Source: Candidatus Shapirobacteria bacterium
GTDB taxonomy: Bacteria; Patescibacteriota; Microgenomatia; UBA12405
Assembly: GCA_041649835.1 (NCBI GenBank)
Contig: JBAZML010000002.1
Coordinates: forward strand, 3,318 to 67,317
DNA length: 64,000 bases
Direction of reading: 5' to 3'
Shown: positions 377-64,000 of the stretch, piece by piece
Layout of the letters: every line of letters begins with the position of its first letter
Position numbering within the stretch: position 1 is the first letter of the stretch
Made by a program: the position numbers and the translations under genes
The notes under the pieces: model-generated
The model's input: only the letters and a program-made list of their open reading frames with translations
Databases searched by the model: none
What the model was told of the DNA's origin: nothing

Positions 377-377
377 G

Positions 378-6143: not shown

Positions 6144-6225
6144 AAAATTGGATACTTAGCTATACTAATGATATTGTGGTCATTTTCTATTATATTTCAA
6201 AATCTGTGTTTTAAATAGTGTTGTT

Positions 6226-8492: not shown

Positions 8493-8497
8493 GAACC

Positions 8498-8779: not shown

Positions 8780-8785
8780 AAGGAT

Positions 8786-12975: not shown

Positions 12976-12976
12976 G

Positions 12977-14305
12977 GTAAAACATATGTCGATAGTTGTC
13001 CATGATTCTTGGGATCTTTCTGAAAAGTGTAGAAAAGATCGCCAACGCCATAATGAGAAAGTAGATAAGGCTATACGTGATGCTGCTAGAGATACTTTAG
13101 CTGATGAATCTATTATCACTAAACGTGGCGAACGTACTGTAAGAATCCCGGTAAAGGGTCTTAAGGAATGGAGATTTATTTTCGACCATAACCAAAAAGG
13201 AAAGAAAATTGGTGGAGCAGGCCAAGGTAAAATAAAGCCTGGAGATACGATAGCAAAAAAGAATCTAGATCAAGAAGGTAAAGCTGGAAATCAACCTGGA
13301 GAAGATATTATAGAAGTAGATGTGTCTCTAGAATATCTTCTCGAAATTATGTTTGAAGAACTAGGTTTACCTAATCTAGAAGACAAAGAAAAGATCGAGA
13401 ATTTAGTTTCTGCGGGATTTAAATTTGATTCTATAGCTAAAAAGGGTATTCATTCTCAGTTACATAAAAAGAAAACTATCCTAGAAAGTATCAAAAGATT
13501 TGCTGCAGATATACGAGAACTTATGTTAGCCGGGAAGTGTTCAGAAGATGATGCAAAAAGAGCCTACTACCAAGCTAAACATGATCTTAAAAAGGCTTTA
13601 AAAATAATTTTAACAAACTCTATTGATAAGTATATCGACCCTAATTTAATGAATCCTATGATTAATGATGAGGATCTTAGATTTAGGAGGGTAGAAGAGA
13701 ATTTTATTCCTCAAAGTAGGGCTGTAGTAATTTTAATGTGTGATTCTTCAGGTAGTATGGGACAAGAAAAGAAGTATTTAATGAGATCCTTATTTTTTTG
13801 GCTCACACAATTTGTCAGACAATGTTATGAATATGTGGAAATAAGGTTTATAACACATGATACAACAGCGAAGCTTGTGGACGAGGATGAATTCTTTAAG
13901 AAAGGAGAATCCGGGGGTACTTATTGTTATACAGCTTTTGAAATGGCGAATCATTTATTGCAAACTGTGTATCCTGTAGAAGCCTGGAACGCCTTTTGTT
14001 TATACTGCAGTGACGGTGACTCATGGGATGTGAAAAAAGATATAGCGGCTTTAAATCATCTTATAGATTCCGGACTAAGTTTGTTTGGGTACTATGAAAC
14101 TCATCCATCAGAAGTTAGGTTCTATGGATTTGATGATGGGGAACTACTCTCAGACATTATAGACGAATTTGATCTTAAAATTTTGGATATAGGTAAAAAT
14201 CAAGAGTTCTATAAAAATGTTGATAAACGAATGGTCGCAGGTATAATAAGAAGTAAAGAAGATGTATTTCCAGCACTCAAAGCTACTCTATATGGAAAGA
14301 GGTGA
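12977..14305 (+). CDS. yhbH: YhbH/YeaH-family protein (DUF444, vWA-like)
   Basis: N-terminal MSIVVHDSWDL...QRHNEKV as in YhbH; MCDSSGSMG MIDAS-like motif; start 2 nt after prkA stop. Confidence 0.85.
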   Translation, partial: VKHMSIVVHDSWDLSEKCRKDRQRHNEKVDKAIRDAARDTLADESIITKRGERTVRIPVKGLKEWRFIFDHNQKGKKIGGAGQGKIKPGDTIAKKNLDQEGKAGNQPGEDIIEVDVSLEYLLEIMFEELGLPNLEDKEKIENLVSAGFKFDSIAKKGIHSQLHKKKTILESIKRFAADIRELMLAGKCSEDDAKRAYYQAKHDLKKALKIILTNSIDKYIDPNLMNPMINDEDLRFRRVEENFIPQSRAVVILMCDSSGSMGQEKKYLMRSLFFWLTQFVRQCYEYVEIRFITHDTTAKLVDEDEFFKKGESGGTYCYTAFEMANHLLQTVYPVEAWNAFCLYCSDGDSWDVKKDIAALNHLIDSGLSLFGYYETHPSEVRFYGFDDGELLSDIIDEFDLKILDIGKNQEFYKNVDKRMVAGIIRSKEDVFPALKATLYGKR

Positions 14306-14308
14306 TAT

Positions 14309-14401
14309 ATGATAGGATTTATTTTAGGGTTATTAGGGGGTTTATTCGTCGGTCATTTTTTAAGTAAAATGCTTCAAAAACTGTTAAATAAAGAGAGGTG
14401 A
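14309..14401 (+). CDS. small hydrophobic peptide (30 aa)
   Basis: MIGFILGLLGGLFVGHFL...; below ORF-track cutoff. Confidence 0.25.
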   Translation: MIGFILGLLGGLFVGHFLSKMLQKLLNKER

Positions 14402-14404
14402 TTT

Positions 14405-14533
14405 ATGATTATTGACTGGTACAGGTTCGGCTTCTTTTGTCTTTGTTTATTTGGGTCATTCTTTGCTAGTGGTATTCATGGAATTATTTGGTTTATGGCA
14501 GGAATAACTTACGTAAATATATGTGAGAGTTAA
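14405..14533 (+). CDS. small hydrophobic peptide (42 aa)
   Basis: MIIDWYRFGFFCLCLFGSFFASGIHGIIWFMAG... Confidence 0.25.
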   Translation: MIIDWYRFGFFCLCLFGSFFASGIHGIIWFMAGITYVNICES

Positions 14534-14535
14534 AG

Positions 14536-15030
14536 ATGAAAAAATGTGAACTATGTGGGGAGACTAGGATATTTCAGGACGATCCTACTGATAATGGATA
14601 TAATTTTGTGGTCTTTTGTTGTTATTCTCAATATCATATAGAATTAAATGGAACACAAAAATTAATACATCAAGGTACCTTATGTAAAGACTTTATGTTA
14701 TATAAACTTAAAAATTCTAGTCCGCATAATGAGTTATCAAACTCTGAAGCAGAAAGGCTTGCGTGGCTTCTCGAAGAACTTGGAGAAGTACAACAAGCAA
14801 TAGGTAAAGTACAACAAGCAATAGGTAAAATACTTAGACATGGATATGATAGCAAATGGCCTCCTGATATAGGACCCTCAAATAGAGATAATTTAGAAAA
14901 AGAAATAAGAGATGTTATCAAGGTGTTAAGATTAATGGACAGATTTACAGATATTAATCTTATGAAAATCGAGAACTCAGTAACAGATGACTACTCTAGA
15001 TGTTATCTACATCACCAGGATCTATCATGA
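14536..15030 (+). CDS. MazG-like nucleotide pyrophosphohydrolase-like protein with N-terminal zinc ribbon
   Basis: CELCGE N-terminus; LLEELGEVQQAIGK ... NLEKEIRDVIKVL resembles all-alpha NTP-PPase EExxE/ExxD helices; contains in-frame 21-bp tandem duplication. Confidence 0.4.
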   Translation: MKKCELCGETRIFQDDPTDNGYNFVVFCCYSQYHIELNGTQKLIHQGTLCKDFMLYKLKNSSPHNELSNSEAERLAWLLEELGEVQQAIGKVQQAIGKILRHGYDSKWPPDIGPSNRDNLEKEIRDVIKVLRLMDRFTDINLMKIENSVTDDYSRCYLHHQDLS

Positions 15031-16481
15031 AACTGCAAGAAACTCAACGTCTTATTAAAATTGAAGAAAAAATTAAGCAAATCGCCTCTGAGGAGCTCGG
15101 CTTAACTTTTCCTAACATTGAGTTCGATTGTATTCCGGCAGAGAAGATGATCGAAATCATGGCTTGTAGAGGTCCTTCCCAAATATCTCATTGGTCTTAT
15201 GGAAAGAACTATGAAAAAATTAAAACAATCTATAATGAAATTACCCCCGATCTTCCTTATGAAGTTGTTATTAATTCTCTTCCACCAAGAGCATATCTTC
15301 TTAATAAGAATACCTTAGCAGTTCAGGCCTTGGTCATTGCTCATGTTTATGGACACGTTCATTTCTTTACCAAAAGTAAATTCTTTTCTAAACATAGAAG
15401 AGATATTATAGAACTCATGTCCAATGCCTCTGATAGGTTTAGTAAATACGAAAAGAAATATGGTATTGAAAACGTAGAACCCATTATTGATGCTGGGCTG
15501 GCTTTACAACAACATGTTAATCCTTATGACGAAGAGACTGAAGAACAGAAAAGAGAACGAGTTTATGAGCACCATAAAAAGAAAATGCAACCATTTTCTC
15601 ATGAGTTCTCAGATCTGATTAACACCAATGACCGAGACCGAAATCTTGATATAGAAGCGTATAATAGTCAATTGCGGCTAGCTCTTAAAAATCTAATTCC
15701 AGTAGAGCCAACGGAGGATATTCTACGGTTTATTATTGATAATTCTAGAAACCTTGATGATTGGGAAAAGGATATACTCGAAATTATTAGGGAAGAGGGT
15801 ATGTACTATCACCCAGTTATTAAGACAAAAACAATTAATGAGGGATTTTCCGTCTTTGTGCACCAAAAGATTATGCAAAGACTTTTTGAGTTAAAATTGC
15901 TTACCCAAGAAGAACACGGTCAATACGCGGTAAGTAATTCTCTAGTAAAAGCTCAATCTATGTTTTCCATTAATCCTTATCTAGTAGGGTCTAAGATGTT
16001 AGAAGATATTGAAGACAGATGGAATAAGGGCAAATTTGGAAAAGAATGGGAGAATTGCGAAAATATAACAATAAAAAAGAGTTGGAATAAGAATCTAGGT
16101 TTGGGTTGGAAAAAGGTTTTAGATGTATGTGAATCTTATAATGATTGGTTGTTTATGCAAGATTTTTTAACTACAGACTTAATAGAAGAGTTGGAATTAT
16201 TTATTTATCAGCAGATAGAGACCAGGGACGAAATTAGATTAGTTAGAACAGAACATACTCTAGAAGAGATTAAACAAATGATTTTAATGAGTTATGCTTT
16301 GTCTTATACCCCTAAAATAGAGGTTATAGAAGGAAGAAAAGAATTAATTTTAAGGCATGAATATTTTGGAAATAATCTAGATACTAAATATGCTATGGAG
16401 ACTATAAAACATGTAACAAGACTCTGGGGAGATAAAGTCTTGTTACATACTAGAGATGGAGAAGTTGAATTGGTTTTGTAG
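15027..16481 (+). CDS. spoVR: SpoVR/YcgB-family protein
   Basis: MKLQETQ...CIPAEKMIEIMACRGPSQISHWSYGKNYEKIK..., IAHVYGHVHFF, NEGFSVFVHQKIM all match SpoVR landmarks; ATGA overlap with preceding gene. Confidence 0.85.
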   Translation: MKLQETQRLIKIEEKIKQIASEELGLTFPNIEFDCIPAEKMIEIMACRGPSQISHWSYGKNYEKIKTIYNEITPDLPYEVVINSLPPRAYLLNKNTLAVQALVIAHVYGHVHFFTKSKFFSKHRRDIIELMSNASDRFSKYEKKYGIENVEPIIDAGLALQQHVNPYDEETEEQKRERVYEHHKKKMQPFSHEFSDLINTNDRDRNLDIEAYNSQLRLALKNLIPVEPTEDILRFIIDNSRNLDDWEKDILEIIREEGMYYHPVIKTKTINEGFSVFVHQKIMQRLFELKLLTQEEHGQYAVSNSLVKAQSMFSINPYLVGSKMLEDIEDRWNKGKFGKEWENCENITIKKSWNKNLGLGWKKVLDVCESYNDWLFMQDFLTTDLIEELELFIYQQIETRDEIRLVRTEHTLEEIKQMILMSYALSYTPKIEVIEGRKELILRHEYFGNNLDTKYAMETIKHVTRLWGDKVLLHTRDGEVELVL

Positions 16482-20269: not shown

Positions 20270-20277
20270 TATTTATA
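20270..20277 (-). promoter_or_regulatory. T4-type late promoter motif (TATAAATA on minus strand)
   Basis: tatttata on plus strand 15 nt upstream of fibre ATG; overlaps stop of upstream gene. Confidence 0.35.
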
Positions 20278-34576: not shown

Positions 34577-34613
34577 GGTCTTAAGGATATTTATACAATA
34601 TCTCCTTAAGACC
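34577..34613 (-). promoter_or_regulatory. perfect 11-bp inverted repeat whose loop carries a TATAAATA late-promoter motif, ~38 nt upstream of tape-measure ATG
   Basis: ggtcttaagga-N15-tccttaagacc; loop tatttatacaatatc = TATAAATA on minus strand at 34588-34595. Confidence 0.5.
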
Positions 34614-52240: not shown

Positions 52241-52861
52241 TTAATCGCCTCTAAGACACCCTCTTTCAATCCTAGTTTTACTTATTTTTGCTCTAGTTTC
52301 TGTGGTTACTTCATGCCCCATTTTAGATTCAGACATTTTTTTGATGCTTTCTGGACTATGGACCCTAGTTCTACATTTAGAACAGGGTTCTTTCCTTGTA
52401 TTAAATTTATGTATATTAGTTTCATATGAATGACCATTAGGACATTTAACATTAAAAGATATTCCGTCATATTCATTATCCAAGAGAATAGATCCGGTTT
52501 GCTCTACGAGTAGTTTTAATTTTTCATAGGTTACAGTATTATGGACAACACGTTCTTCTACAGGTATTTTATCCCAAGCAGCTTTCCTAGCTTTTGATAA
52601 GGACTTACCAGTTTTTTCTCTATATTCAGGATTTTGCCAATTTTTCTTGCTATTAGCTGAATGTTTAGCTTTGGTCTCAGGTAAATTGGCTGAGCGTTTA
52701 TTTCTGCAAGTTCTACAAAGTTTCAAATCACCTTGTTTAATATAATTTTTATATACTTGTAAAACCTCAATTTCACAATGTTCACAAGTAAACCAGACCT
52801 TCTTACCACTACCTCTGGTCAATTTTTCTAATGGTGTACCGTCTTCAGTTCTAAGTAACAT
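52241..52861 (-). CDS. HNH-type homing endonuclease with NUMOD3 DNA-binding repeats
   Basis: CEHC...N...LKLCRTCRNKR (HNH-like Cys box) followed by three NUMOD3-like repeats (HSPESIKKMSESKMG; TTETRAKISKTRIERG). Confidence 0.55.
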   Translation of the reverse strand: MLLRTEDGTPLEKLTRGSGKKVWFTCEHCEIEVLQVYKNYIKQGDLKLCRTCRNKRSANLPETKAKHSANSKKNWQNPEYREKTGKSLSKARKAAWDKIPVEERVVHNTVTYEKLKLLVEQTGSILLDNEYDGISFNVKCPNGHSYETNIHKFNTRKEPCSKCRTRVHSPESIKKMSESKMGHEVTTETRAKISKTRIERGCLRGD

Positions 52862-52882
52862 GTTATGTACCTCCTTATAGTC

Positions 52883-52890
52883 TATTTATA
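52883..52890 (-). promoter_or_regulatory. T4-type late promoter motif TATAAATA upstream of the homing endonuclease gene
   Basis: tatttata on plus strand ~22 nt upstream of ATG; GGAGG RBS between. Confidence 0.4.
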
Positions 52891-53004
52891 ACATATCTAT
52901 GGAAAATGTAAACTAAGGAATATGAACAAAGAAAAAGCCTCCAGGTGAACTTTTCTTAACTCACTTAGAGGCTTAGGGTGCTTGTAACTAGTTAATATTA
53001 AACG

Positions 53005-54210
53005 CTAATCGGTAAAGTTATCGACCTTAACCCATCTGTAATAGAGCGCTGAGCCAAAGATATGTTCATGGATCCCATATCTCGACATAAGCCCGATAGT
53101 AGGATTGAAGGAATCTTCGAAAGTAGCTCTACTTGCCATTAGAGAAATATAAGGCAGATAGATAATACCAGTGTCATATGCGGAAGGACCCTTGTAACCT
53201 ACCAAGAAGCCGACTTCATCAGCAAATGTATCACGATAAACAGAGATTCTACCGTCTAGAGTACCAAGTCTTGCGACCCCAGTGGGGGCAGTATTTACGT
53301 CACCGGCAACGGGCCAAATAGTAAAGGCGGAAGTTGCTTCGAAAATGGCGCAAACAGTAGGATGACAGACGACCCAATTACCAGCCCCTCTACGAGTAGT
53401 AATGGCAATGTCATTAGACCTACGGATAAGCATATTGAACAAGGAACGATAACGTTCTCCATCCCATCTGCCATCAGCAGTTAGGTAATTCCAACCAGAG
53501 CTTGTAGTAGCAGAAGCAGTGGCTGAGGTATGAATAGCCGCGATAAGTTCACGATCGATTTCCTGAGTAATTTCATAACTCAGAATATCCATCATTTCAC
53601 CTTCAAGATCTAGACCGTGCATGGCTTTAAGATCTTGTGCTACTTCCTGAGACCAACGAGCACGAAGCTTACGAGTCTTGGCTTCTACTTGGGCCTTTTC
53701 AAGAGTCATGTTGACTTCTTTGATATGAGACCCAGTACCGATACCAATACCATAATCACTTCCTACGCCAGAACCAGCCTTAGAACCAAGAGCTTCCTGA
53801 GCTGAAGTAGTAGCAGAATAGGTGTAATCCTTATCTACTGTGTTATAGCCGATTTCCTGACCATGGGCCACGGAATTATAAGTCTGGCCAGCACGATAGC
53901 GCAGTGCAAAAGCTAGGCCTACGGGGCCGGTCATTGGTTGTACGCCAACTAGATCATGGGCAACCAATTCAGGAAAGGTTCTACGTACCATAGGAATAGC
54001 GATTTGATAAAAATCGCCATTGGTGGAATAAGAACCACTGCGATTAAAAGTAGCTTCAATGTTGGAACCAGATTCGTTTAATTGTGTGGTCATCCATTTT
54101 TCCTGGTTTTCCAGCATAATGGCAGTAGCATTTTTAACTTTCTGGGATTTAATGGGATTGCCTTCGTTAAGAATTTCTTCCCACTTTTTAACGGTTTCTT
54201 TAATGTTCAT
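53005..54210 (-). CDS. major capsid protein, T4 gp23-like
   Basis: ENQEKW, GVQPMTGPVGLAFALRY, VGYKGPSAYDTGIIYLPYISL, RYGI align with T4 gp23 (ENQEKDF, GVQPMNSPTGQVFALRA, VGYKGPNEMDAGIYYAPYVAL, RYGIG). Confidence 0.85.
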   Translation of the reverse strand: MNIKETVKKWEEILNEGNPIKSQKVKNATAIMLENQEKWMTTQLNESGSNIEATFNRSGSYSTNGDFYQIAIPMVRRTFPELVAHDLVGVQPMTGPVGLAFALRYRAGQTYNSVAHGQEIGYNTVDKDYTYSATTSAQEALGSKAGSGVGSDYGIGIGTGSHIKEVNMTLEKAQVEAKTRKLRARWSQEVAQDLKAMHGLDLEGEMMDILSYEITQEIDRELIAAIHTSATASATTSSGWNYLTADGRWDGERYRSLFNMLIRRSNDIAITTRRGAGNWVVCHPTVCAIFEATSAFTIWPVAGDVNTAPTGVARLGTLDGRISVYRDTFADEVGFLVGYKGPSAYDTGIIYLPYISLMASRATFEDSFNPTIGLMSRYGIHEHIFGSALYYRWVKVDNFTD

Positions 54211-54222
54211 TAAGTTCTCTCC

Positions 54223-55080
54223 TTAACTTTTGAGAATTTCTTTCCATCTTTCTACCATACTTGAGCGGTAGGTTTCAAATGGAGACTTTTCTTCTTTGAT
54301 TAAATCTTTTTTAGGTTTATCTTCTACAGTTATTTTGCCCTTGCCCTCAGATACTTCTGCGTTTTTCATTTTCTTTGAGTCGCATTCAGGACACATGGTT
54401 ATGTTGCAGGCTTTATCCGATTTTCCTTCATAACCACATTCAGGACATACACAGTCATTAGACTTTGCATCTTCGGCCTCATGTAGTTTATTTTCTACAA
54501 TAAGATCAAATTTACGATCGATTTCTTTTACGTTTGTTACGCCTTCTAACAGACCCATAACTCGTTTGCGAGCGGGAGTAGTTAGTCCATCAGTTTTTCT
54601 TACTTTATATAGTTCAGCTGCCAGATCTTGAGCATCAGATTCTAATACAAACTTTTCTTCCATTAGGCCGTTAACGTCTTCATTTAACTTAAGAATTTCG
54701 TCTCTAGCTTCATTCAGAAGCTCTCTGGCTTCGTCGTCGAGCACGCCTTCATCAATACCAATACGTACTTTAAACTGGTCAATTAGGTCGGAGTATAGTT
54801 CGCCTTTGCGAGCATACTCCATAATATTCTCGGGAATAATCATCTCTTCTTCTAAGATGTCATCTACGAAATTAGAAAACTTAGAGGTGATATCTTTCTT
54901 ATAGTCTTCAAATTTTTCTTCATAGTGCTCTAAAAGTTTTTCCTTTTCAACTTCAAGGGCCTCGTTTACTTTTTCCTGAACTTTTAGGTCAACAATATCA
55001 TTAAGCTTTTCAGTTATAGCAGCTTGCTGGTCTTCGTTCAAAGACTCGGCTTTTAGCATTTTTAAAATTTCATCAAACAT
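54223..55080 (-). CDS. prohead scaffold/core protein (gp22-like) with embedded zinc ribbon
   Basis: Highly acidic coiled-coil protein directly upstream of capsid gene; CVCPECGYEGKSDKACNITMCPECD. Confidence 0.5.
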   Translation of the reverse strand: MFDEILKMLKAESLNEDQQAAITEKLNDIVDLKVQEKVNEALEVEKEKLLEHYEEKFEDYKKDITSKFSNFVDDILEEEMIIPENIMEYARKGELYSDLIDQFKVRIGIDEGVLDDEARELLNEARDEILKLNEDVNGLMEEKFVLESDAQDLAAELYKVRKTDGLTTPARKRVMGLLEGVTNVKEIDRKFDLIVENKLHEAEDAKSNDCVCPECGYEGKSDKACNITMCPECDSKKMKNAEVSEGKGKITVEDKPKKDLIKEEKSPFETYRSSMVERWKEILKS

Positions 55081-55094
55081 TTATCTTCTCCTTC

Positions 55095-55508
55095 TTAGCG
55101 CTGTTTGGTAAGACCAAGTTTTTTACCAGAAAGACCTTTACCCATTTTTTCCATACGAGCAATTTTAGGTTTTAGCTTTCTTATTCTAGCTTTGATCTTA
55201 GCTTTATTTTTACGATAATACATCTTAGACTTTCTACGATTTTTAGCGTTAGTCTTTTTTAACAGACGCACTTCGCTGACTTCACCCTCGTCCTCATTTT
55301 CGGTATCCTCTTCGTCACCCTCATCACCAGAATCAAGTTCGTTGAGAATATCATGTAAACGAACAACCATTTCATCTGATAAATTTTCGTCGTCAAGTTC
55401 TAGTAAAAATTCTACCATGTTATTGACAAGTTCATCATCAGACATTTGTTCGTTTAGAGGTTCGATGTCAGTACCGAGATATTTTCTCAGTTTTTCATCT
55501 ATGTTCAT
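55095..55508 (-). CDS. prohead core/internal protein (acidic N-half, basic C-tail)
   Basis: Composition and position between protease and scaffold. Confidence 0.35.
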   Translation of the reverse strand: MNIDEKLRKYLGTDIEPLNEQMSDDELVNNMVEFLLELDDENLSDEMVVRLHDILNELDSGDEGDEEDTENEDEGEVSEVRLLKKTNAKNRRKSKMYYRKNKAKIKARIRKLKPKIARMEKMGKGLSGKKLGLTKQR

Positions 55509-55547
55509 ATATTATTGCCCTCCTATTGAGTTGTAATTCCTATAGAG

Positions 55548-55555
55548 TATTTATA
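55548..55555 (-). promoter_or_regulatory. T4-type late promoter motif TATAAATA
   Basis: tatttata on plus strand ~40 nt upstream of ATG 55508 with GGAGGG RBS. Confidence 0.5.
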
Positions 55556-55738
55556 CAAATTTGCATTTTTGTTACAAATTACTTATGAATTAAAGATTTT
55601 ATCTTCTTTTCTATCTTATATACAACATTACCAACAGGCCCCCGTTTTTTTCTAGAATCGGCGCTAGCTTTTCTAGCGGCCTCAGACCAAGCTTCGCCTA
55701 AAAGCAATTCTATTCTATTTAGTAGTTTTGTATTCATT

Positions 55739-56023
55739 CTATCCCCCAAAAGTTTTCTTGATATTATTTCCTACTGACTGAAATCCCTTTACCGCGATAT
55801 TTTTTAACACCTCTAGTGGAAGCATTTTAAGATCTGAGTAGGCGGATTTAAGTTTTGTTTGAGCGCCTATCAGTCGTTTAAGATTTCTAGCTTCTTCACT
55901 TTCTTCTATTATGGCCTCTATTACTTGAAGGGCTGTGTCTACACTATTAAGCATAGATACATATAAAGCTGCTGCAGAATCCTCATTTAATGTTTTATCT
56001 GAAAAATACTCTTTTAGTTCCAT
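55739..56023 (-). CDS. hypothetical head protein
   Basis: 94 aa. Confidence 0.3.
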   Translation of the reverse strand: MELKEYFSDKTLNEDSAAALYVSMLNSVDTALQVIEAIIEESEEARNLKRLIGAQTKLKSAYSDLKMLPLEVLKNIAVKGFQSVGNNIKKTFGG

Positions 56024-56035
56024 GAATTTATGGCC

Positions 56036-56479
56036 TTATAAGAATTTTATGCCGGTATAAACCGCGTTCTTATTTCTTTTTCTATATGAAGGTAGGTCTA
56101 TAGAATGAATCTCTGTACCTTTGGTTATTGTTATCCTGACTGGATTATAATTGTCAAAATGTACTTTAATATCTAATGGAGTTTGGGCACTTTTAAATAC
56201 CACAGTATCTCCATGTCCGGGGTTATCAGGATCGCTTTTTATAACTCTATCGAAAGCAAAGCCTTTAGATTTTAGAGCAAAATCTATTTTGTCTCTTAGG
56301 TCTCGATAATAGTTTTTACTATCTTCTGTATTTGTTAGTTTTCCTACAAGTTTAGTGATTAAGCTAACAACGAATTTAAGAAGAACTGGAGTAGCAACAA
56401 CCGCAGCAGTTTTAGCTAAAGTTGCAGTTAAGTTTTCAGCCAAAAGTAAATCTATTCTTTTTACGAGATCTTTAGACAT
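56036..56479 (-). CDS. hypothetical head protein
   Basis: 147 aa. Confidence 0.3.
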   Translation of the reverse strand: MSKDLVKRIDLLLAENLTATLAKTAAVVATPVLLKFVVSLITKLVGKLTNTEDSKNYYRDLRDKIDFALKSKGFAFDRVIKSDPDNPGHGDTVVFKSAQTPLDIKVHFDNYNPVRITITKGTEIHSIDLPSYRKRNKNAVYTGIKFL

Positions 56480-56481
56480 TT

Positions 56482-57279
56482 CTACCTTCCTACGATTTTA
56501 ATAAGTTTACCGTAAGCCTGTTCTAATAGAGCTCTTGTAGCTACTAACTCAGAATATTTTATCTTATCCCCCGATTCTTTCATTACTTTTTCCATAGTCT
56601 TTAAAGGAAAATAAGTATCAAAAGTATCAATAGTTTTGGCTAATCCACGAACTATTACAGAACCGTTGCCCTCATCTAGTCGAGAAAGCTGATTCATTAA
56701 GAACTTGAAATACTCTTCTTTAAGTTCTTCTACATTAGGCTCGACTTTATCTTCAGAATCATAAGTAGCAAATGTAGTACCTTCATAAATACCATTAACC
56801 CAAGATGGGTTATTTGATGGACTCGAAACTAGATCCCAAAGGATGAGTTTATATTCGTCATTTACAACTCCAGACTCATTGACCGAGCCTAGACCTCTAG
56901 AGCTAATACCTATGGGCCCCTCTTTTAAAAGAGTCTTAGCTATCTGTCCGTTTGGGGTATCTAGAATTTTAGCCTTACCATATAAATCATCCCCCTTCCA
57001 TTCAAGTTGCATTGTTCTAATAGCAACTTTGTCTAGATTGGGTTCTGGGTTTGATGGATGGCCGAGCTCTCCCCATAGAGGAATGCCCTTTTTTAGATAA
57101 GCCTCTTGGAGTTTAGTAACTTCTCTTTCTAAAATAGGTTTCTTGTAAATTCTACCATTAGCATTCTTCTTTTCGGCTGAAGAGAAGATCCCGACTACAT
57201 ATAGACTTTTGTCCTTAGCGTCTTCCTCAAGAACAACGTCGTAACTGCATTCTGTTATCAGTTTTAATCTCTGGTTCAT
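56482..57279 (-). CDS. prohead core protease, T4 gp21-like
   Basis: NANGRIYKK, GELGHPS, GISSRGLGS match gp21 NKNGRLYPE, GELTHPS, GVSSRALGS. Confidence 0.7.
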   Translation of the reverse strand: MNQRLKLITECSYDVVLEEDAKDKSLYVVGIFSSAEKKNANGRIYKKPILEREVTKLQEAYLKKGIPLWGELGHPSNPEPNLDKVAIRTMQLEWKGDDLYGKAKILDTPNGQIAKTLLKEGPIGISSRGLGSVNESGVVNDEYKLILWDLVSSPSNNPSWVNGIYEGTTFATYDSEDKVEPNVEELKEEYFKFLMNQLSRLDEGNGSVIVRGLAKTIDTFDTYFPLKTMEKVMKESGDKIKYSELVATRALLEQAYGKLIKIVGR

Positions 57280-57299
57280 AATAGCTTCCTTTTTATTAC

Positions 57300-57491
57300 T
57301 TATTCTTTTTCGCCTTCCTCTTCCTTCTCTACTTTTACCGGATCTACTTCTTTTTCAAGGCCCACCGTGTCTTTTAAATAACTGTTCTTTGCTGCTTGAA
57401 TTTCTTTTTTGAGAATTTCTTTGGCAGTCACATAATCATCTTTACTAAATGCGTCTAGAGCATCTTTTACTTTTTCGGTGTCAACAGGCAT
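57300..57491 (-). CDS. small acidic prohead core protein (gp67-like position)
   Basis: 63 aa between portal and protease. Confidence 0.3.
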   Translation of the reverse strand: MPVDTEKVKDALDAFSKDDYVTAKEILKKEIQAAKNSYLKDTVGLEKEVDPVKVEKEEEGEKE

Positions 57492-57527
57492 ATGTTATTC
57501 TCCTTATAGTTTATTTATTAAAAATTT

Positions 57528-59090
57528 CTAATATCCACCACTTTGCTGTTGTTCAAGTTTTGGATCAGGTCTGAATCCTAGTTTTATGTCTTCAGCAAAC
57601 GAGGCAGCATTCGCCTTAATATCATTTTCGTCCCATTCTAAATATTTTCTCATTAAGAAGGACTTTCCCATTTCTGGCAAATTTGCGAGTGTGAGATAAT
57701 TATTGAACTTTACTTCTCTCATTATTTGTTCTTGCTTGTCCTTATAGAAAGAAGGCTGAATCATCTTAATGGCTATATTGTCTCTAGTTAATTCGTATTC
57801 AGCTTTAAGACCCTTGAATTCTAGATGAAGTAAAAATAGATTAAGCCACTCATTACAAAAACGATTTTGCTGCCGAGAAAGAAATGTCGCCCATTTGATC
57901 TCATCTCTGCTAATTTCTCCAGCCGGGCTTCTTGAAAATAAAATCTCTGACTCTCTATCACTTTGCATAGCAGAAACCCTAGACATAGGATATTTAAGAG
58001 ACTGATACAGCTTTCTTTGAAAGTACTTAATATCTGAGAGTTCTGTAAACCCAGCTGTAGAAGATCCACCAACAGTAGAAATATCTGAACCTCTTCCCTC
58101 GCTCGACGTACTAAGAAAAAAATTGTCCTGTATAGATAAAACATCAGGATTTTGAGTTAATCTACCAGTACTTGGATCATAACTCTGTTTCTTCATCATA
58201 GAAGACTTTACTTTTTCAACATATTTCATGGCCTTATCTCTGGGCATATTTCCTACGTCTACCTTAAATACTAGTCTCTCGGGGGCCCTCACAATTCGGT
58301 AAATAATGATAGAAGTTTCAAGTAGTTTCAGTGTATTATACGGAACTTTTACCTTTTCCAAATACCCAAAAATCTCAGATTTAAGTCTTCCATAAATACC
58401 ATAGTCTACAAGTCCTATTTGGGCTGGTTCAAATTCAATAACATCTTTTTCTGATGGATTTACTTTTTTACCGGAATCTGGATTAAGATATTGTCTAAAC
58501 TTCTTTATTTTACCTGTTATATGATCGTATTCAAAATCCATAGTTTCTGACGGAAGTTTCTTAATTCCGATAATTCCGTTTTTTTGGTTCTTTTCATCTA
58601 TTATTCTTTCATAGTAAAATCTACCATCAATAAAATAGCTTCTAAAATAATCATAACAGTTTTCATGGAGTTTAAGTTTATTATAGAATAAATCGTCGAA
58701 TTCCTCTTGAAGTTTATCTATAATATTCTTATTCTTTTTAAGATCTTCCTCTTGAATATCGAGCACTAAAACTTTGCCTTCTAGATCTTCTTGGGTAGAT
58801 TCTATACAAGCATCTTCAATAACGTCTGCGATTTCTGGCATTTCAGCGATGTTTCTATAGTTTAAAATTTTTGCTCTTTCATTATCGAAAGTTTTATTTA
58901 TGTAGTGGGCGTAGAACAAATTAAAACTTGAAGTTGACAAAGCCGAAAATTGTGGTAGAAACTCTAACCCCTCACCTGACATATTCTTGGCAATTTTCGG
59001 TGTTAGCGTAGTTCCGCCCTTGTTTTTAAAGGCTGCTATTGACTCATCCAACTTACTTACATAATTTTTTACGCCAGATAATATTCCCAT
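57528..59090 (-). CDS. portal protein (gp20-like)
   Basis: 520 aa, gene order terminase..portal..protease..scaffold..capsid as in T4. Confidence 0.6.
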   Translation of the reverse strand: MGILSGVKNYVSKLDESIAAFKNKGGTTLTPKIAKNMSGEGLEFLPQFSALSTSSFNLFYAHYINKTFDNERAKILNYRNIAEMPEIADVIEDACIESTQEDLEGKVLVLDIQEEDLKKNKNIIDKLQEEFDDLFYNKLKLHENCYDYFRSYFIDGRFYYERIIDEKNQKNGIIGIKKLPSETMDFEYDHITGKIKKFRQYLNPDSGKKVNPSEKDVIEFEPAQIGLVDYGIYGRLKSEIFGYLEKVKVPYNTLKLLETSIIIYRIVRAPERLVFKVDVGNMPRDKAMKYVEKVKSSMMKKQSYDPSTGRLTQNPDVLSIQDNFFLSTSSEGRGSDISTVGGSSTAGFTELSDIKYFQRKLYQSLKYPMSRVSAMQSDRESEILFSRSPAGEISRDEIKWATFLSRQQNRFCNEWLNLFLLHLEFKGLKAEYELTRDNIAIKMIQPSFYKDKQEQIMREVKFNNYLTLANLPEMGKSFLMRKYLEWDENDIKANAASFAEDIKLGFRPDPKLEQQQSGGY

Positions 59091-59247
59091 TTTATACTCC
59101 TAAGTATTTTGTACAGTTTATTTTACACATAATAATCAAAAATCAACAAATTCCAAACTTGATAAGTACGAACGGTTTCACGAATATGCCGGTCTATATA
59201 CTCTCGATTAATAATGTTATGTTCTAATAATAAATAGCTAAGAAATT

Positions 59248-59700
59248 TCATTTTATTCCTAAACTTTTTTCAGTCAGTATCTTAAATTCTATTCCATTCT
59301 TTTTACAATATTCATCTGCTGCTTTCCATTTAGCCAAATTCCTAGTATAAGTAACCCATTCTTTTAAATAGTATGAGTCGTTTTTTTTTCTCGCCGGAAC
59401 CTTACATTCTTTTTCTGGTTTGATTTCTATAATGTAGTTGTTAATATTGCCGTCTTTTGTTTTAATTCTTACCATAAAATCTGGATAATAAGATCTAGAT
59501 TTCTTTTTAACAACATCGTAGTATAAAATCCTAATTGATTCACTAGACCATAGTATTATAGAAGATGTCTTGTCACAATATTCACAAAATTTACGTTCCC
59601 ATGAAGATCTACAAACAGCATGAGTCCCTACGAACTTATCTAGATTCTTTGGAACAAATATTGTATGACCTTTACCAACTTTATTTTTTATCCAACTCAT
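59248..59700 (-). CDS. PD-(D/E)XK-fold protein (head-completion-like or endonuclease)
   Basis: YYPDFMV...YIIEIKP (D...E-x-K); N-terminal C...C..C. Confidence 0.4.
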   Translation of the reverse strand: MSWIKNKVGKGHTIFVPKNLDKFVGTHAVCRSSWERKFCEYCDKTSSIILWSSESIRILYYDVVKKKSRSYYPDFMVRIKTKDGNINNYIIEIKPEKECKVPARKKNDSYYLKEWVTYTRNLAKWKAADEYCKKNGIEFKILTEKSLGIK

Positions 59701-60716
59701 GTTTTTATAATATAATTAATTACCAAATATGGTTGTAAATTATTATGCGCAGTCCCGCCGCCGGTAGAAGAAGTTTGATTTTCACCAAGAAAACATGTAA
59801 AACCGCTGCCAGCGGGAACAATATTTCCTCCAGTAAGCATTACTGCGGTATGTGTATGCGAAGGTATTTCATTAGTGATTAAGGTGTGTGTAGCTGCTCC
59901 ACCTGTTTGACCTAAAGAAGTAAAATTAGCATCTAAAGAATTTTTGCCTACTGGAATAATACCTCTTAAATCTGGAACATTAAATGTTGTTGTACCGTCT
60001 CCAACACCATATGTTGTATTCGTAATAGCGAATAAATCAGCATATGTAGTTCTTGATACAGCAGAACCATCACAAAGCAAAAATCCTGTAGGAGCAGAAA
60101 GCCCAGCATATGGAAATATAGAACCCTTAGGAATCAAATCTGTAACATCATCAACATACTTCTTATTAGCGACTTGATAGTCTTCAGTAGGAGCTTCGCT
60201 CGGGGTTAAAGGAAATGCTTGAAAAGTTATTGTGTTTCCTGCTGTACCATCCCATTCAGAATACACCAAAACCGTAGTAGCTCCTACTGTTATAGTTCCA
60301 GAACCCGTAAATATTTGATATGGACCTGCGATAACCGGCCCGCTAAATGTTATTGAAGACCCAGATGCTACACTAATAGTAGCCCCGGCCATAACATAAA
60401 CTGACACATTAGTAGGAATGCTAATACTTCCAGAAATTGTCCATATTCCTGGTACTAATACTAAAGTTCTGGTATTTGGAGACATAAGAGCGATAGCGGC
60501 TATAGCAGCAGCTATTGTAACCTGGTCTTTCGATGTTCCATATATCCTAGCATCTACCCATGGGCCCATAGATATGATGTCTGCTGGCTTTATCGCTGTT
60601 ATATTGTAGCTACCATCAAAAAGTTCTTGAATATATTCCCCAGAGACACCAGTAGGGATTTGAACTATATCAGCGTCTGAATATCCATTGATTATGTTGG
60701 TTTTTAATTCTGACAT
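59697..60716 (-). CDS. short tail fibre/receptor-binding protein with C-terminal phage tail collar domain (gp12-like)
   Basis: C-terminal LRGIIPVGKNS...GQTGGAATHTLITNEIPSHTHTA = collar-domain signature with HxH metal site. Confidence 0.6.
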   Translation of the reverse strand: MSELKTNIINGYSDADIVQIPTGVSGEYIQELFDGSYNITAIKPADIISMGPWVDARIYGTSKDQVTIAAAIAAIALMSPNTRTLVLVPGIWTISGSISIPTNVSVYVMAGATISVASGSSITFSGPVIAGPYQIFTGSGTITVGATTVLVYSEWDGTAGNTITFQAFPLTPSEAPTEDYQVANKKYVDDVTDLIPKGSIFPYAGLSAPTGFLLCDGSAVSRTTYADLFAITNTTYGVGDGTTTFNVPDLRGIIPVGKNSLDANFTSLGQTGGAATHTLITNEIPSHTHTAVMLTGGNIVPAGSGFTCFLGENQTSSTGGGTAHNNLQPYLVINYIIKT

Positions 60717-60728
60717 CTATTTAAGCTC

Positions 60729-62282
60729 CTATATTATTGAAGGGGTATTTAACCATGTCCAATCTGCGAGATCTGTTGAATCTGTGAGGATACCCCATAC
60801 ATCATCTTCCTCTTCTTTCTTACCAAACTCAAAACTTTCATCCAATATATCTAATGTTAAAGCATATGTTGCCCAATATAGAGCTGATACTAAATCATCA
60901 TTGAGATTATTACAAGTAAATTTTCCGCTTTTCTCTGAATAGTCATTCAACTGCTCTAACGTATCACGATCCAGAAGTTCAAGACTGTAATCCTCAATCA
61001 GCTTTTTCATTAACAAAACAGCCTTAGGTTTTGTATTTCTTGTTGCTCTTATTCCTAGATCTGTGGTCTTTGATCCGCAATTATAAAGTTTTGAATATTC
61101 TAGTTCCCACCAAAGTTGATTTACCACAGCAGAACCTTCTGCATTATTTTCACAAATAATCCAAGCCCCATTATAATAAACGCCAAGACGATTAAGTATC
61201 TCTGCATATTTATATACATCCACCATATTATCGTTAAATACTGCTACCTGTTTTAACTTAATAGGTTTTAAACTTATAACCTTTAAAATTTGGGTGCTGG
61301 AATAATGTTCTCCGGTTCCTTTAGCTGTATCAGCTCCAATAACATATACACAACCATCTATAGGCTTCTCATATACAAAAAGTTTACCATTTAAGTCCTT
61401 TGTAATTGGCTGTATATATTTATTAGAAATTTGCTTTAAAACTTCTGGATCAATTACTGTAGAGATAGAGCCGACGAAGGAACATTCAAATTCTTGATTA
61501 AAGAGGACCATATCATTATTCATATTCTTAAGTTGGTCTTCTTTCCACTTCTCGTCTCTTCCTTCTACATCACTCCAGATAGTTTTATAATACTTAAATT
61601 CATTTCTGTTATTTACAGCCCCATCCCATAGTTGGCCAAATAAATTAAACAGGCCTTTTGGAGTAGAAGCTATGATAATTTTAGCATCTTTTGAAGCAGA
61701 AACAGCTGGATAGTTAGACGCCCAAAACTCAGCGGCCAGCTTATCACTGGTCAAGTGAGCGAACTCATCTAATATTAGCAGTGTAATTGTTCTCCCCCTG
61801 AAGGCTGCTTTAGAAGTTGCTGCTGTTTGTATTGTACTTCCGTTCTCAAACGTTATTGAGGTCTCGTTATACTTAGTAATTCCAGGTTTTAGTTTTTCAT
61901 CAAGTTCCTCGTACATTAGTTTTATGCGCTGGAGGAAGTCTTGAGCTGATCTTGCAGAGTTTGATCCTATAGCGACATATGAATCTGGCCTAAATATTGC
62001 ATACCAAAGAGAATAGGATCCCATAGAAACCGTTTTTCCTTGTTGGCGCCCTGAGCAAATTATTACTCTATTGTTATTTAAAACTAAATCGAAAATATCT
62101 CTTTGATATTTTCTAGGAATAAATTCTACTCTACCGTCATCAGGGTGAAGAATGGTTACATGAGATAAGAAATAGTAAAAGTCTTCAGAACATCTAGTAA
62201 GTCGATCTATATCTTCCTTAGAATATTCGAGTTCAGTATTTGGTTTTTTTATAAAACCGAATTCATCGTATTTTATTGTCAT
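60729..62282 (-). CDS. terminase large subunit (gp17-like)
   Basis: Walker A CSGRQQGKT (gp17 SRQLGKT); size; upstream of portal. Confidence 0.8.
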   Translation of the reverse strand: MTIKYDEFGFIKKPNTELEYSKEDIDRLTRCSEDFYYFLSHVTILHPDDGRVEFIPRKYQRDIFDLVLNNNRVIICSGRQQGKTVSMGSYSLWYAIFRPDSYVAIGSNSARSAQDFLQRIKLMYEELDEKLKPGITKYNETSITFENGSTIQTAATSKAAFRGRTITLLILDEFAHLTSDKLAAEFWASNYPAVSASKDAKIIIASTPKGLFNLFGQLWDGAVNNRNEFKYYKTIWSDVEGRDEKWKEDQLKNMNNDMVLFNQEFECSFVGSISTVIDPEVLKQISNKYIQPITKDLNGKLFVYEKPIDGCVYVIGADTAKGTGEHYSSTQILKVISLKPIKLKQVAVFNDNMVDVYKYAEILNRLGVYYNGAWIICENNAEGSAVVNQLWWELEYSKLYNCGSKTTDLGIRATRNTKPKAVLLMKKLIEDYSLELLDRDTLEQLNDYSEKSGKFTCNNLNDDLVSALYWATYALTLDILDESFEFGKKEEEDDVWGILTDSTDLADWTWLNTPSII

Positions 62283-62285
62283 AAA

Positions 62286-63839
62286 TTATTTACTCTTTAT
62301 GTAATTATAAATTTCTTGCCCACTGTTTACAATAATTTCTATTCCATCCTTTTTATAATTAAGTTTAGAATAATTAATTTCTTTGGAGTGGTAAGGGGGT
62401 TCTTCTAAAGACATGAGAATTTCGCGCTCATAGTCTACTAATTCAAACTCAAATGTATTAGGATCAAATTTAGATTTAAAATAGAGACCTTCATATTTAA
62501 TTATTCCTTTGTCCCAAGTTCCGCCTTCCCACCTACCGTTTTCCCAAATTCCTTTAGTCCAATGCCCTCCTTTCCAAATACCATTAGACCAAATACCATT
62601 AGACCAAATACCATTAGACCAAATACCTCGTTCCCATGTACCATTAGTCCAAACTCCTTTGTCCCAAGTGCCGTTTTTCCAGGTACCTCGTTCCCATGTA
62701 CCATTTAACCATAGACCATTTAACCATAGACCATTGTGCCACGTGCCGCTAGCCCACGTGCCGCTAACCCAAGTTCCATCTTCCCACCTACCATTTTTCC
62801 ATATACCATTATTAAAAATACCTTTTTTCCAAACACCATCTTCCCAAACACCATCTTCCCAAACACCATCTTCCCAAACACCACGAAAAAACCATTTTCC
62901 ATGAGATTTTGTTAATTCTAATCTACCTTTAAGATCTTTAGCTTTTAAAATCCATAGTTCGTCTTTAAGAACCTGATCCCATGTAGTTCCATTGGTCAAT
63001 GTAATATATTTCTTAAGTTCTTCCACCCTAGCGGGCAGTCTTACGATAGTTGTTTTATCAACTTCATGATAAACTCTGTCAGACAATTTAAATATACCCT
63101 GTATCTTTGATTGAACACTTTCTAACCATTTTTCTACAGCCTCTTTAAATCCTGTAAGAGTTTCTAAGGGATATGTTCTAGAAGCTATTCCTAAATAGAC
63201 TCTCTTTGTTTTATCAAAGTATGGTTTAATCATTATTCTAGCTATAGGCCTTTTAATATTCTTGTCATCATCCTTAATTAAATATGCTATAATACTTCCC
63301 TCTGCAATTTCTTTTGGAACATATTTTTGATACTCTCCACCATTAGGGCCCAAAGTCATACATGACTCCCAGTCTCTACCTGTGGACATTCCTGCTATAT
63401 CATACGGATGTCTAGAAATAGCTATTAAAAGTTTATTAGAAGTTCCTGCCATCCTACCATAATCATTATTAAATTTGTTTAAGAGATCTTTTATATCTCC
63501 TTTAGCAAATCCCATTTCTTCGGGTTTCAATTTTTGTAAAACTTTTCCTATTTTCTGTTCGCGTATTTCACCTTTCTTTTTACAAAGACCTTTTAAATAA
63601 TCGGTAATTTCATACCCAAAAACATTTAAAAATCTGTTTAGCGCGTGGGCAATAGGATTATTGAGACCACTATCTATATTAATTTTAGGGGGCGTAAATG
63701 GTATGTAGATCCTATATTTACCGCCAAATAGAGAGTCGTATCGCGACTTGTTCCAATTTCGAGAAAGTTCTTTAGCTGTTGATAAAGGTAAAGTTTCATT
63801 TATCAAAGTTATGAAATATATTAATTTCTCTAAAATCAT
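62286..63839 (-). CDS. hypothetical protein with 26 tandem Trp-containing pentapeptide repeats (x-x-G-phi-W)
   Basis: FRGVW EDGVW EDGVW ... SNGIW SNGIW ... EGGTW over ~130 aa; occupies the small-terminase position. Confidence 0.5.
   Translation of the reverse strand: MILEKLIYFITLINETLPLSTAKELSRNWNKSRYDSLFGGKYRIYIPFTPPKINIDSGLNNPIAHALNRFLNVFGYEITDYLKGLCKKKGEIREQKIGKVLQKLKPEEMGFAKGDIKDLLNKFNNDYGRMAGTSNKLLIAISRHPYDIAGMSTGRDWESCMTLGPNGGEYQKYVPKEIAEGSIIAYLIKDDDKNIKRPIARIMIKPYFDKTKRVYLGIASRTYPLETLTGFKEAVEKWLESVQSKIQGIFKLSDRVYHEVDKTTIVRLPARVEELKKYITLTNGTTWDQVLKDELWILKAKDLKGRLELTKSHGKWFFRGVWEDGVWEDGVWEDGVWKKGIFNNGIWKNGRWEDGTWVSGTWASGTWHNGLWLNGLWLNGTWERGTWKNGTWDKGVWTNGTWERGIWSNGIWSNGIWSNGIWKGGHWTKGIWENGRWEGGTWDKGIIKYEGLYFKSKFDPNTFEFELVDYEREILMSLEEPPYHSKEINYSKLNYKKDGIEIIVNSGQEIYNYIKSK
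62505..62895. repeat. 15-bp-period coding repeat array (~26 units) encoding the W-pentapeptide repeat
   Basis: e.g. ccaaataccattagac x3 at 62583-62630; regular period across ~390 bp. Confidence 0.8.
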
Positions 63840-64000
63840 TTACTTTATCCTTGTATATACACCGCAATGGTCAGAGACAAAAGGGCCATTAGCGCCATTA
63901 AATATAATCTTCGTTTCCAGTATTTTAAACTCTGAACCTATAAAAATGTAATCTATTTTGTAATCATTTCTGCCTACATAATCACAATATGGGTTGTTCC
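63840..64000 (-). CDS. hypothetical protein, 5' part beyond window edge
   Basis: Open minus-strand frame to window end; stop TAA abuts ATG of ORF 63839 (TAAATG). Confidence 0.3.
   Translation of the reverse strand, partial: NNPYCDYVGRNDYKIDYIFIGSEFKILETKIIFNGANGPFVSDHCGVYTRIK

Follow-up and report, generated by a model that had tools for sequence, protein, structure and literature searches.

A Trp-containing pentapeptide repeat protein encoded beside the terminase of a distant T4-like phage: predicted three-sided β-solenoid and candidate capsid-targeting leader

Which protein occupies the place directly upstream of the large terminase (TerL) gene in the phage DNA analysed here, a stretch of 64,000 nucleotides (the window) of contig JBAZML010000002.1, and what might it do there? 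The gene in question (62286..63839, minus strand) is a complete open reading frame (ORF) for a protein of 517 aa (60.1 kDa, isoelectric point (pI) 9.15) whose most conspicuous feature is an unbroken array of 26 pentapeptides of the form x-x-G-x-W, and an initial annotation had placed it in the position of a small terminase (TerS). We find that the protein is almost certainly not a TerS, that its array is likely to wind into a three-sided β-solenoid in which three units (15 residues) make up each coil and, far more tentatively and with a confidence that stops just short of even, that it may serve a distant T4-like phage as a modular accessory protein, packaged in the capsid as cargo and possibly ejected.

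A phased x-x-G-x-W array behind a conserved N-terminal domain

The ORF exists at its initially annotated coordinates but is read from the minus strand, the frame on the plus strand being riddled with stops. Its ATG lies directly after the TAA of the upstream gene and is preceded by an AAGGA Shine-Dalgarno sequence ~10 nt upstream. When the protein sequence is printed in fives, the 26 phased units appear as one contiguous run from FRGVW to DKGII, as the initial annotation had it, at residues 318-447 (62499..62888, minus strand); the range of ~333-463 given there is ~15 too high. Gly occupies position 3 in 26/26 units, as had been claimed, whereas Trp, also described as invariant, occupies position 5 in 24 of the 26, the others being Phe in unit 5 and Ile in unit 26. 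An array of this kind is beyond chance, and the same repeat is found in ~2,000 unrelated cluster representatives.

An exhaustive phmmer search with residues 300-517 against 1.84 billion cluster representatives returned 1,996 proteins at E ≤ 1e-3 (984 at E ≤ 1e-10), with lengths from ~200 to 3,738 aa, and a word-indexed search returned 542 repeat relatives, many with 20-69 phased units. Over 2,295 units the consensus is [KE][ND]G[TIV]W, with Gly at position 3 in 100% and Trp at position 5 in 99%. No model in Pfam, NCBIfam, PHROGs or PADLOC matches this xxGxW repeat, all proteins that contain it are unnamed in the sources examined, and literature searches for a Trp pentapeptide repeat, for a solenoid with a tryptophan ladder or for MORN repeats of jumbo phages turned up nothing relevant. 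The initial annotation had set the repeat apart from the A(D/N)LxX pentapeptide, and we concur: the consensus is another one, three and not four units are predicted per coil, and the Pfam Pentapeptide models (PF00805, PF13576, PF13599) give no match at E ≤ 1 for the window protein and none at E ≤ 1e-3 among 49 repeat-bearing relatives. A distant relative, P0071, has a PF13599 match elsewhere in the protein.

We also scanned GTDB genomes with a degenerate DNA pattern for xxGxW arrays. True in-frame arrays were found in Bdellovibrionales (L158), where the proteins are small lipoproteins with a signal peptide and lipobox, in a Pacearchaeota metagenome-assembled genome (L152), and in Myxococcota, where the arrays are located in large multidomain proteins; some matches in high-GC genomes were spurious, being out-of-frame translations. 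The bacterial and archaeal proteins have an analogous cap, [ILV]x[ILV]T..G.[VI].W..G.W. On one phage contig (L088, 234-15045) there are six xxGxW paralogues, of which five (490, 516, 587, 596 and 477 aa) form an uninterrupted tandem series; a dual-specificity phosphatase (DSPc) gene comes after them, and a tail-tube gene is nearby.

At the DNA level the array is a 15-bp repeat with identical units, as initially annotated. Tandem Repeats Finder (TRF) reports a perfect tract of ~3.7 copies of GGTGTTTGGGAAGAT, encoding GVWED (62829..62883, minus strand, 100%), another of ~3.6 copies of GGTATTTGGTCTAAT, encoding GIWSN (62574..62627, minus strand, 100%), a third perfect 15-bp tract of 2.4 copies (62700-62735, 100%) and an imperfect tandem tract at 62739-62771 (94%). 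Across 62501-62915 the repeat DNA yields long spurious ORFs in other frames on both strands, such as one of 131 aa at 62509-62904 on the plus strand, and their mis-calling as genes is possible.

The gene also occurs on an independently assembled metagenome contig (L001), as P0001 with 507 aa. Over 11,685 nt L001 has 0 mismatches to window positions 52286-64000 and departs from them solely by two indels of 15 bp, each of one unit in a perfect tract: GVWED is present four times in the window and three times in L001, and so is GIWSN. This comparison of copy number, which the initial annotation had proposed for related phages, supports its description of the repeat as a recombination and contraction hotspot, in that the identical DNA units behave as a site of contraction and expansion, and we suggest that repeat number would drift via replication slippage within the perfect tracts. 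An assembly artefact had been named as what would overturn the repeat; because the same gene is found on independent L001 and in hundreds of homologues, the repeat is not such an artefact. It weighs against slippage that the one-unit indels themselves could in principle reflect assembler behaviour, but the tracts, at 60 nt, do not reach the k=141 given in the record of L001, which speaks against an assembler effect.

Alignment of full-length relatives reveals a conserved N-terminal domain (N-domain; residues ~10-260), a variable linker, the repeat array and a short conserved cap. In the window protein (minus strand throughout), the basic N-domain (pI 9.5) covers residues ~16-262 (63054..63794), and the linker and N-terminal solenoid cap cover residues 263-317 (62889..63053), in which AlphaFold2 (AF2) predicts the segment LKGRLELTKSHGKWF to be a β-hairpin. 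Behind the array (62289..62498) come a C-terminal cap with a conserved motif, G-[LK]-I-x-D ... S-x-x-x-P, then a helix at residues 459-479 and a ~35-aa tail that is restricted to this phage.

The N-domain is marked by the motifs ISRHPYDIAGMSTxRxWxSC and IAYLIxxDDKNIxxPIARIxIKPY, and 12 residues are invariant in 45 sequences (R43, S142, D147, R155, W157, S159, C160, Y186, D192, P198, R201 and Y257). AF2 predicts a globular α/β domain (predicted local distance difference test score (pLDDT) 82). A sequence-profile search of the PDB with the N-domain alignment gave nothing credible, and an assignment as acetyltransferase was not adopted, the GNAT-like matches of Foldseek in the PDB being insignificant (E ≥ 0.23, template-modelling (TM) score ≤ 0.27). 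When Pfam, PHROGs, NCBIfam and PADLOC were applied to the whole protein, its halves and its relatives, the only match for the N-domain was phrog_17056 (E 2.4e-6, residues 115-223, for the domain scanned alone), a family of unannotated function around an Atu_ph07 protein. By tblastn the N-domain has homologues of 31-37% identity in the jumbo phages Lu11, RsoM2USA and Atu_ph07 and in Erwinia and Dickeya phages, with best E-values of 2e-34 in cultured phages and 8e-37 in an uncultured phage record; the jumbo-phage homologues are annotated as hypothetical, apart from one 'exonuclease' label that is unsupported.

Large and jumbo phages commonly encode this domain, invariably at the N-terminus. The fetched loci contain 101 N-domain genes, of which no more than 14 have xxGxW repeats, and the alternative C-terminal modules are DUF4116, LRV, LRR_4, ankyrin and coiled-coil regions. 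The xxGxW arrays for their part follow at least 10 other N-terminal families (hhalign probability against the N-domain <3% each), one of which is an Amidoligase_2 domain. Because each occurs without the other, we regard N-domain and repeat as independent modules.

Predicted fold of the array

With a 49-sequence alignment, AF2 models residues 300-517 at a mean pLDDT of 88, and of 90-98 across the array; the AlphaFold check suggested in the initial annotation thus returns a confident, solenoid-like model with a period of 15 residues, a predicted three-sided β-solenoid of ~8.7 coils. According to DSSP, the model has short strands every five residues in a 15-residue super-period (EEE--EE---EEE--), the strands being formed by position 4, the Trp and the next position 1, and the turns by [N/D]-G. 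AF2 makes over-confident solenoid predictions for near-perfect repeats (PMC11795689), and we therefore sought evidence from sequence alone, independent of AF2, in the covariation within 190 arrays comprising 4,400 units. Charges at position 1 are anticorrelated at lag 3 (autocorrelation -0.159; permutations 0.002 ± 0.015, minimum -0.041), with opposite-charge to same-charge pairs at 1.56:1 at lag 3 and at 0.88-1.03 at all other lags, and the effect is present in 145 of 189 arrays. Asn at position 2 is autocorrelated at lag 3 as well (+0.132; permutation maximum 0.084), and Thr at position 4 is raised at lags 3, 6 and 9 (0.065-0.096), a weaker signal since lag 1 is similar (0.079). Unit identity shows no higher-order period in its autocorrelation, lag 3 being found only in the charge, Asn and Thr signals. 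Salt bridges at lag 3 and ladders of Asn and Thr, between residues 15 apart, are expected of a solenoid whose parallel coils each hold three pentapeptides; in an antiparallel meander units would be coupled at lag 1 and the Rfr fold of classical pentapeptide proteins at lag 4, whereas the coupling observed is at lag 3.

The competing description holds that the array is disordered or amyloid-like, an antiparallel Trp-zipper- or MORN-like sheet, or a four-sided Rfr helix, and that the AF2 model is an artefact of the over-prediction just cited. There are further observations in its favour. Only two strong matches to the model were obtained in BFVD (TM 0.32-0.45): one is a protein of an uncultured marine phage, and the other, which is the best (E 4.8e-8, TM 0.43-0.45), is a MORN-type 'PIP5K-like' protein from Pseudomonas phage PspYZU05. 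The sequence W-x-[ND]-G-x-W resembles the turns of trpzip hairpins, one relative has a sub-threshold match to the pentapeptide-repeat SV2 luminal domain, and TRF detects a higher-order DNA period of 60 bp, or 4 units. Nevertheless, we consider this description unlikely, given that the charge, Asn and Thr signals fall at lag 3 and not at lags 1 or 4, ~10 standard deviations from permutations, that both the N- and the C-cap are conserved, that there is no Pfam MORN or Pentapeptide match and that, by geometric reasoning, a meander of 3-residue strands and 2-residue type I' turns is inconsistent. Of the two folds that the initial annotation had put forward, the novel β-solenoid is therefore backed by AF2 and by the lag-3 covariation and has no convincing PDB analogue, whereas the Trp-zipper-like fold, as an antiparallel meander, is disfavoured by covariation at lag 3 rather than lag 1.

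In the predicted solenoid the Trp side chains would probably face the core from the strand centres, with Gly, Asn and Asp at the corners and Thr, Ile or Val and the alternating charges outside. Two points weigh against this picture: handedness and the Trp-in orientation come from DSSP only, and three Trp per 15-residue coil would be a sterically tight fit. A Foldseek search of the PDB with the repeat model gave no significant analogue (best E 0.037, TM ≤ 0.19, root mean square deviation 10-15 Å); the best matches were left-handed hexapeptide helices, γ-carbonic anhydrases and the antifreeze protein CfAFP, and no Rfr pentapeptide structure was among the top 50. A role in DNA mimicry, by analogy with Qnr and MfpA, was rejected, since the array is near-neutral (13 K+R versus 14 D+E). 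If the structure holds, it represents a distinct β-solenoid geometry of 15-residue pentapeptide coils with a Gly/Trp core, relevant to fold classification, to repeat-protein design and to antifreeze-like scaffolds, and would justify a new Pfam family for ~2,000 clusters that are now unannotated.

The neighbouring terminase and the case for a virion protein

The gp17-type TerL gene (Terminase_6N/6C; 60729..62282, minus strand) lies 3 nt downstream of the repeat gene, the gap having first been given as 4 nt. It is this arrangement on the same strand that lends appeal to a reading of the repeat protein as an enlarged TerS with a repeat domain, which would recognise DNA and activate TerL. The arrangement recurs beyond the window and L001 in three further lineages (L006, where two tandem xxGxW copies abut TerL; L012/14/66; and L051), the N-domain is basic, as noted above, and a search for another TerS found none in the window's 64 kb or in the 6 kb beyond it in L001, where PHROGs on ten small upstream ORFs gave no match. 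The initial annotation was correct as to the position directly upstream of TerL, but TerS identity is unsupported by profiles and by context. The TerS families of Pfam and PHROGs give no match at E ≤ 1 for the repeat protein, in keeping with its earlier description as lacking TerS features in the N-terminal part, and the comparison of the N-domain with TerS families that had been proposed as a check yields an hhalign probability of 0.1% against PF11053, the gp16-type TerS. The predicted α/β globular fold is without the architecture of helix-turn-helix and oligomerisation helices.

The wider family argues in the same direction. In L062, L064 and L069 the gene order is family member, 242-aa gene, gp15, gp16 TerS and TerL, with a genuine gp16 TerS (PF11053, E 5.6e-8), so that family member and TerS coexist there. 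Family members are also found as tandem paralogues (three copies in L016; two in L006, L010, L053, L061, L071, L073 and L081), some bear Ank, LRR or DUF4116 tails, and the jumbo-phage copies lie far from any terminase. We therefore judge an enlarged TerS to be highly improbable, and stress, as a correction to positional annotation, that TerS is not in every case what lies upstream of TerL. A different window ORF (10656-11036) was considered as TerS after a jackhmmer match with gp16 TerS (E 0.0016); Pfam did not confirm it, and the assignment is disfavoured because the ORF heads a PrkA/DUF444/SpoVR operon, not a packaging module. Around the TerL of L062 (4839-7432; also in L064 and L069), the gene is split into ORFs of 294 aa and 377 aa around a 189-aa ORF, which suggests an intron/homing-endonuclease insertion or an intein-like interruption.

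That the repeat protein is associated with the virion we regard as fairly probable. In 29 of 79 IMG/VR loci a family member lies within 6 kb of T4-type genes for gp13, gp14, gp15, TerS, TerL, portal, protease or gp23 and, with few exceptions, shares their strand; it abuts gp13 in L004/5 and L016 and gp15 in L017/19, L025, L029 and L037. The tblastn homologue of residues 1-253 in RsoM2USA, ORF132 (36.8% identity, E 2e-34), is among ten abundant bands from purified virions that were identified by liquid chromatography coupled to tandem mass spectrometry (PMC8504454).

A location inside the capsid, or ejection from it, by way of a capsid-targeting sequence (CTS) is a possibility that we hold with less assurance. 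The CTS of T4 is MKTYQEFIAE (PMC8442874), the protease gp21 cleaves after L/I-X-E with processing determinants at CTS positions 8 and 10 (PMC9026906), and the T4 internal proteins are a diverse, fast-evolving set with the CTS alone in common (PMC3012670). The N-terminal consensus of the family studied here is M-[KR]-x-x-[EKQ]-(h)-[LIF]-x-E-A-L, and 63 of the 121 members have an [LI]-x-E-A whose last residue falls at 8-16, compared with 1.0% of 626 background ORFs. RsoM2USA ORF132 begins with MKTFKQFLNTLME-A, several relatives begin with MKFTEQIIQE-A, and the start MKTFKQF..LME is likewise seen among relatives. The window protein has a 15-residue variant leader, MILEKLIYFITLINE-T (63795..63839, minus strand, for residues 1-15), the I-N-E end of which fits the gp21 motif; Glu15 is invariant in 12 close relatives and present in at least 90% of the 45 sequences and in 104 of 121 N-termini, and AF2 places a helix at residues 2-13 before it. 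From these features we suggest that residues 1-15 are a candidate capsid-targeting propeptide. The phage encodes a T4 gp21-type prohead protease (Peptidase_S77; 56482..57279, minus strand; identical gene in L001), which is the enzyme that would process such a propeptide, as well as a gp22-like scaffold recognised by a weak T4_CASP match (54223-55080; identical gene in L001). In P0067 (548 aa), where the xxGxW repeats are joined to another head domain, the N-terminus reads MKTYKQFITE, identical to the T4 CTS at 7 of 10 positions.

In the capsid-cargo scenario the repeat protein would be made late, together with the head and packaging proteins; its N-terminal propeptide would carry it into the prohead and be trimmed there by the gp21-type protease; and after delivery with the DNA the conserved domain would act, the rigid and exchangeable repeat module supplying a binding or scaffold surface. 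The window contains the T4 late-promoter sequence TATAAATA 11 times where 14 would be expected, hence without enrichment, so that operon context alone is the argument for late expression. Exact TATAAATA boxes do occur on the minus strand, intergenic and just upstream of minus-strand structural genes, at 52883-52890, 55548-55555, 34588-34595 and 20270-20277, and a one-mismatch version stands at 5470-5480 of L001, ahead of the operon that holds the repeat gene.

A number of points weigh against capsid packaging. The loose [LI]-x-E motif is weakly specific, being present in 17.7% of background ORFs, and the window leader resembles the T4 CTS less than the leaders of many relatives do. The stretch ALKPSQYR after the Glu is even more conserved, and the N-terminal helix may belong to the fold. 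The RsoM2USA data speak for virion association and are silent on location and processing, the jumbo-phage copies of the family lie outside structural modules, and the xxGxW proteins of bacteria and archaea are exported lipoproteins, which suits an extracellular binding role. Finally, a virion role would be extended to the window protein from its relatives.

Some of the same evidence could be accommodated by an external virion protein (a decoration, collar or whisker-like adhesin) that docks by its N-domain and binds glycans or other ligands with its solenoid. Fibres and receptor-binding proteins classically combine a conserved N-terminus with a C-terminus that is hypervariable, as this family does, family members cluster with the neck genes gp13/14/15, where wac sits in T4, the RsoM2USA homologue was found in virions, and cellular xxGxW proteins are lipoproteins or exported, as in Bdellovibrionales and Pacearchaeota; aromatic and Thr ladders are, moreover, typical ligand-binding surfaces. 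We nonetheless think an external protein unlikely, in that Ank, LRR, LRV and DUF4116 modules are repeats of a kind that typically binds proteins inside cells, the N-termini resembling a CTS point inward, signatures of trimerisation or of a fibre are absent, and DSSP places Trp at the strand centres, suggesting a buried ladder. We give no better prospects to a non-virion intracellular effector of host takeover or anti-defence, encoded in a plastic late-operon region and using the repeat as its targeting module. Such an effector would accord with a conserved putative catalytic or binding domain (with S142, H144, D147, C160, R155 and R201 invariant) joined to swappable interaction repeats, with the fusion of xxGxW to Amidoligase_2, with paralogue arrays and a rapid repeat turnover of the kind that is typical of arms-race genes, and with the accessory genes next to it in L001 (Exo_endo_phos, denV-like, TnpB), but its homologue is an abundant virion component, family members are strongly co-oriented and clustered with head, neck and packaging genes, PADLOC and other sources contain no known effector that matches, and Foldseek found only the insignificant GNAT-like matches.

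If the packaging of the repeat protein as capsid cargo holds, the concept of T4 internal proteins would be widened from a few small proteins of E. coli phages to a modular system that is common among environmental T4-like and jumbo phages, and the CTS-like leader would become a sequence handle for finding ejected effectors. The most general formulation, that xxGxW is a new structural class of pentapeptide with a Trp-cored solenoid, used in T4-like phages as an interchangeable rod on capsid-targeted, injected cargo, we offer as speculative and rather doubtful; if true, the class would span ~2,000 clusters in phages, bacteria and DPANN archaea and would point to a large unrecognised repertoire of ejected effectors with lengths tuned by repeat slippage.

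Phage context and comparison with known systems

Judged by sequence, the window is from a distant uncultured myovirus of the T4 superfamily. No cultured phage has a TerL that exceeds 35% identity to the one encoded here, the nearest being cyanomyoviruses and other T4-like phages, and megablast of 6 kb against cultured phages gave no match. Two genes are inserted between TerL and portal (59248-60716, minus strand), one for a 339-aa phage tail-collar (PF07484) fibre-like protein, for which the site is unusual, and one for a 150-aa Tn7 TnsA-like endonuclease that is likely to be a mobile or homing enzyme. Just past the right end of the window, the part of L001 that precedes the repeat gene (1-6297, upstream) holds accessory genes: an Exo_endo_phos nuclease/phosphatase (5500-6297), two small genes on the opposite strand, a denV-like Pyr_excise gene, a TnpB/Cas12f-like gene (2289-3473, minus strand) and thymidylate synthase. 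As this region contains no gp13-16 genes, this phage has its T4 neck/TerS module displaced.

Elsewhere in the window, a plus-strand trio (11020-16481) consists of PrkA (AAA_PrkA+PrkA, 11020-12975), DUF444/YeaH (12905-14305) and SpoVR (15000-16481), with a MazG-like ORF of 164 aa (14536-15030) lying within the set; these genes are associated with stress and sporulation in bacteria, and the trio appears to be a phage-carried auxiliary operon. At 7209-9577, on the plus strand, genes for an S-adenosylmethionine-dependent methyltransferase (7209-7859) and a nicotinamide adenine dinucleotide-dependent sugar epimerase/dehydratase (8786-9577) are possibly DNA or glycan modification genes.

Both modules of the repeat protein are currently unannotated; β-solenoid repeats and modular virion or cargo proteins of phages are known kinds. 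With T4 gp16 TerS (PF11053) the protein shares the place of its gene immediately upstream of TerL; there is no similarity in sequence, profile or architecture, and it is three times larger and belongs to a multi-copy family. The likeness to T4 IPI/II/III and Alt comprises a candidate N-terminal targeting peptide of ~10 residues that ends in [LI]-x-E, a basic cargo, an encoded gp21-type protease and scaffold, and a diverse, fast-evolving, multi-copy family in which the N-terminus alone is shared. Here, however, the leader has 15 residues, the mature parts are without sequence homology, and the 250-aa domain is without a T4 counterpart. RsoM2USA ORF132 and the other phrog_17056 proteins have the homologous N-domain at their N-terminus and a variable C-terminal region after it, but no xxGxW repeats, helical-repeat C-termini and no adjacent terminase.

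For the array itself, the MORN repeat (PF02493/PF07661) offers a similar G-x-W-x-x-G core, and the best BFVD match was a MORN-annotated phage protein; the MORN unit, however, has 22-23 residues and not 5 and forms antiparallel hairpins, whereas xxGxW covaries at lag 3, and Pfam MORN gives no match at E ≤ 1. The Rfr pentapeptide proteins (PF00805/PF13599; MfpA, Qnr, Np275/276) have in common with xxGxW a strict period of five residues, a small residue two before a large hydrophobic one (A..L/F in Rfr, G..W in xxGxW), and long uninterrupted arrays with terminal caps in a parallel β-solenoid, which for xxGxW is predicted. They differ in sequence, A(D/N)LXX as against [KE][ND]G[TIV]W, in having four units (20 residues) per quadrilateral coil where xxGxW would have three (15) and shows no lag-4 covariation, and in being acidic and DNA-mimicking. 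In predicted topology the array resembles the three-sided β-helices: hexapeptide left-handed β-helix acyltransferases and γ-carbonic anhydrases share the triangular solenoid, and CfAFP, the spruce budworm antifreeze protein, shares with it a triangular solenoid, a 15-residue coil, an out-in-out strand and outward Thr. The left-handed hexapeptide helices, in contrast, repeat as [LIV]-[GAED]-X2-[STAV]-X, as opposed to the period of 5 in xxGxW (E ≥ 0.037, TM ≤ 0.19), and with the three-sided β-helices in general the matches are insignificant and there is no sequence relationship; where their cores are built of small or aliphatic residues, the core of the xxGxW solenoid would be built of Trp.

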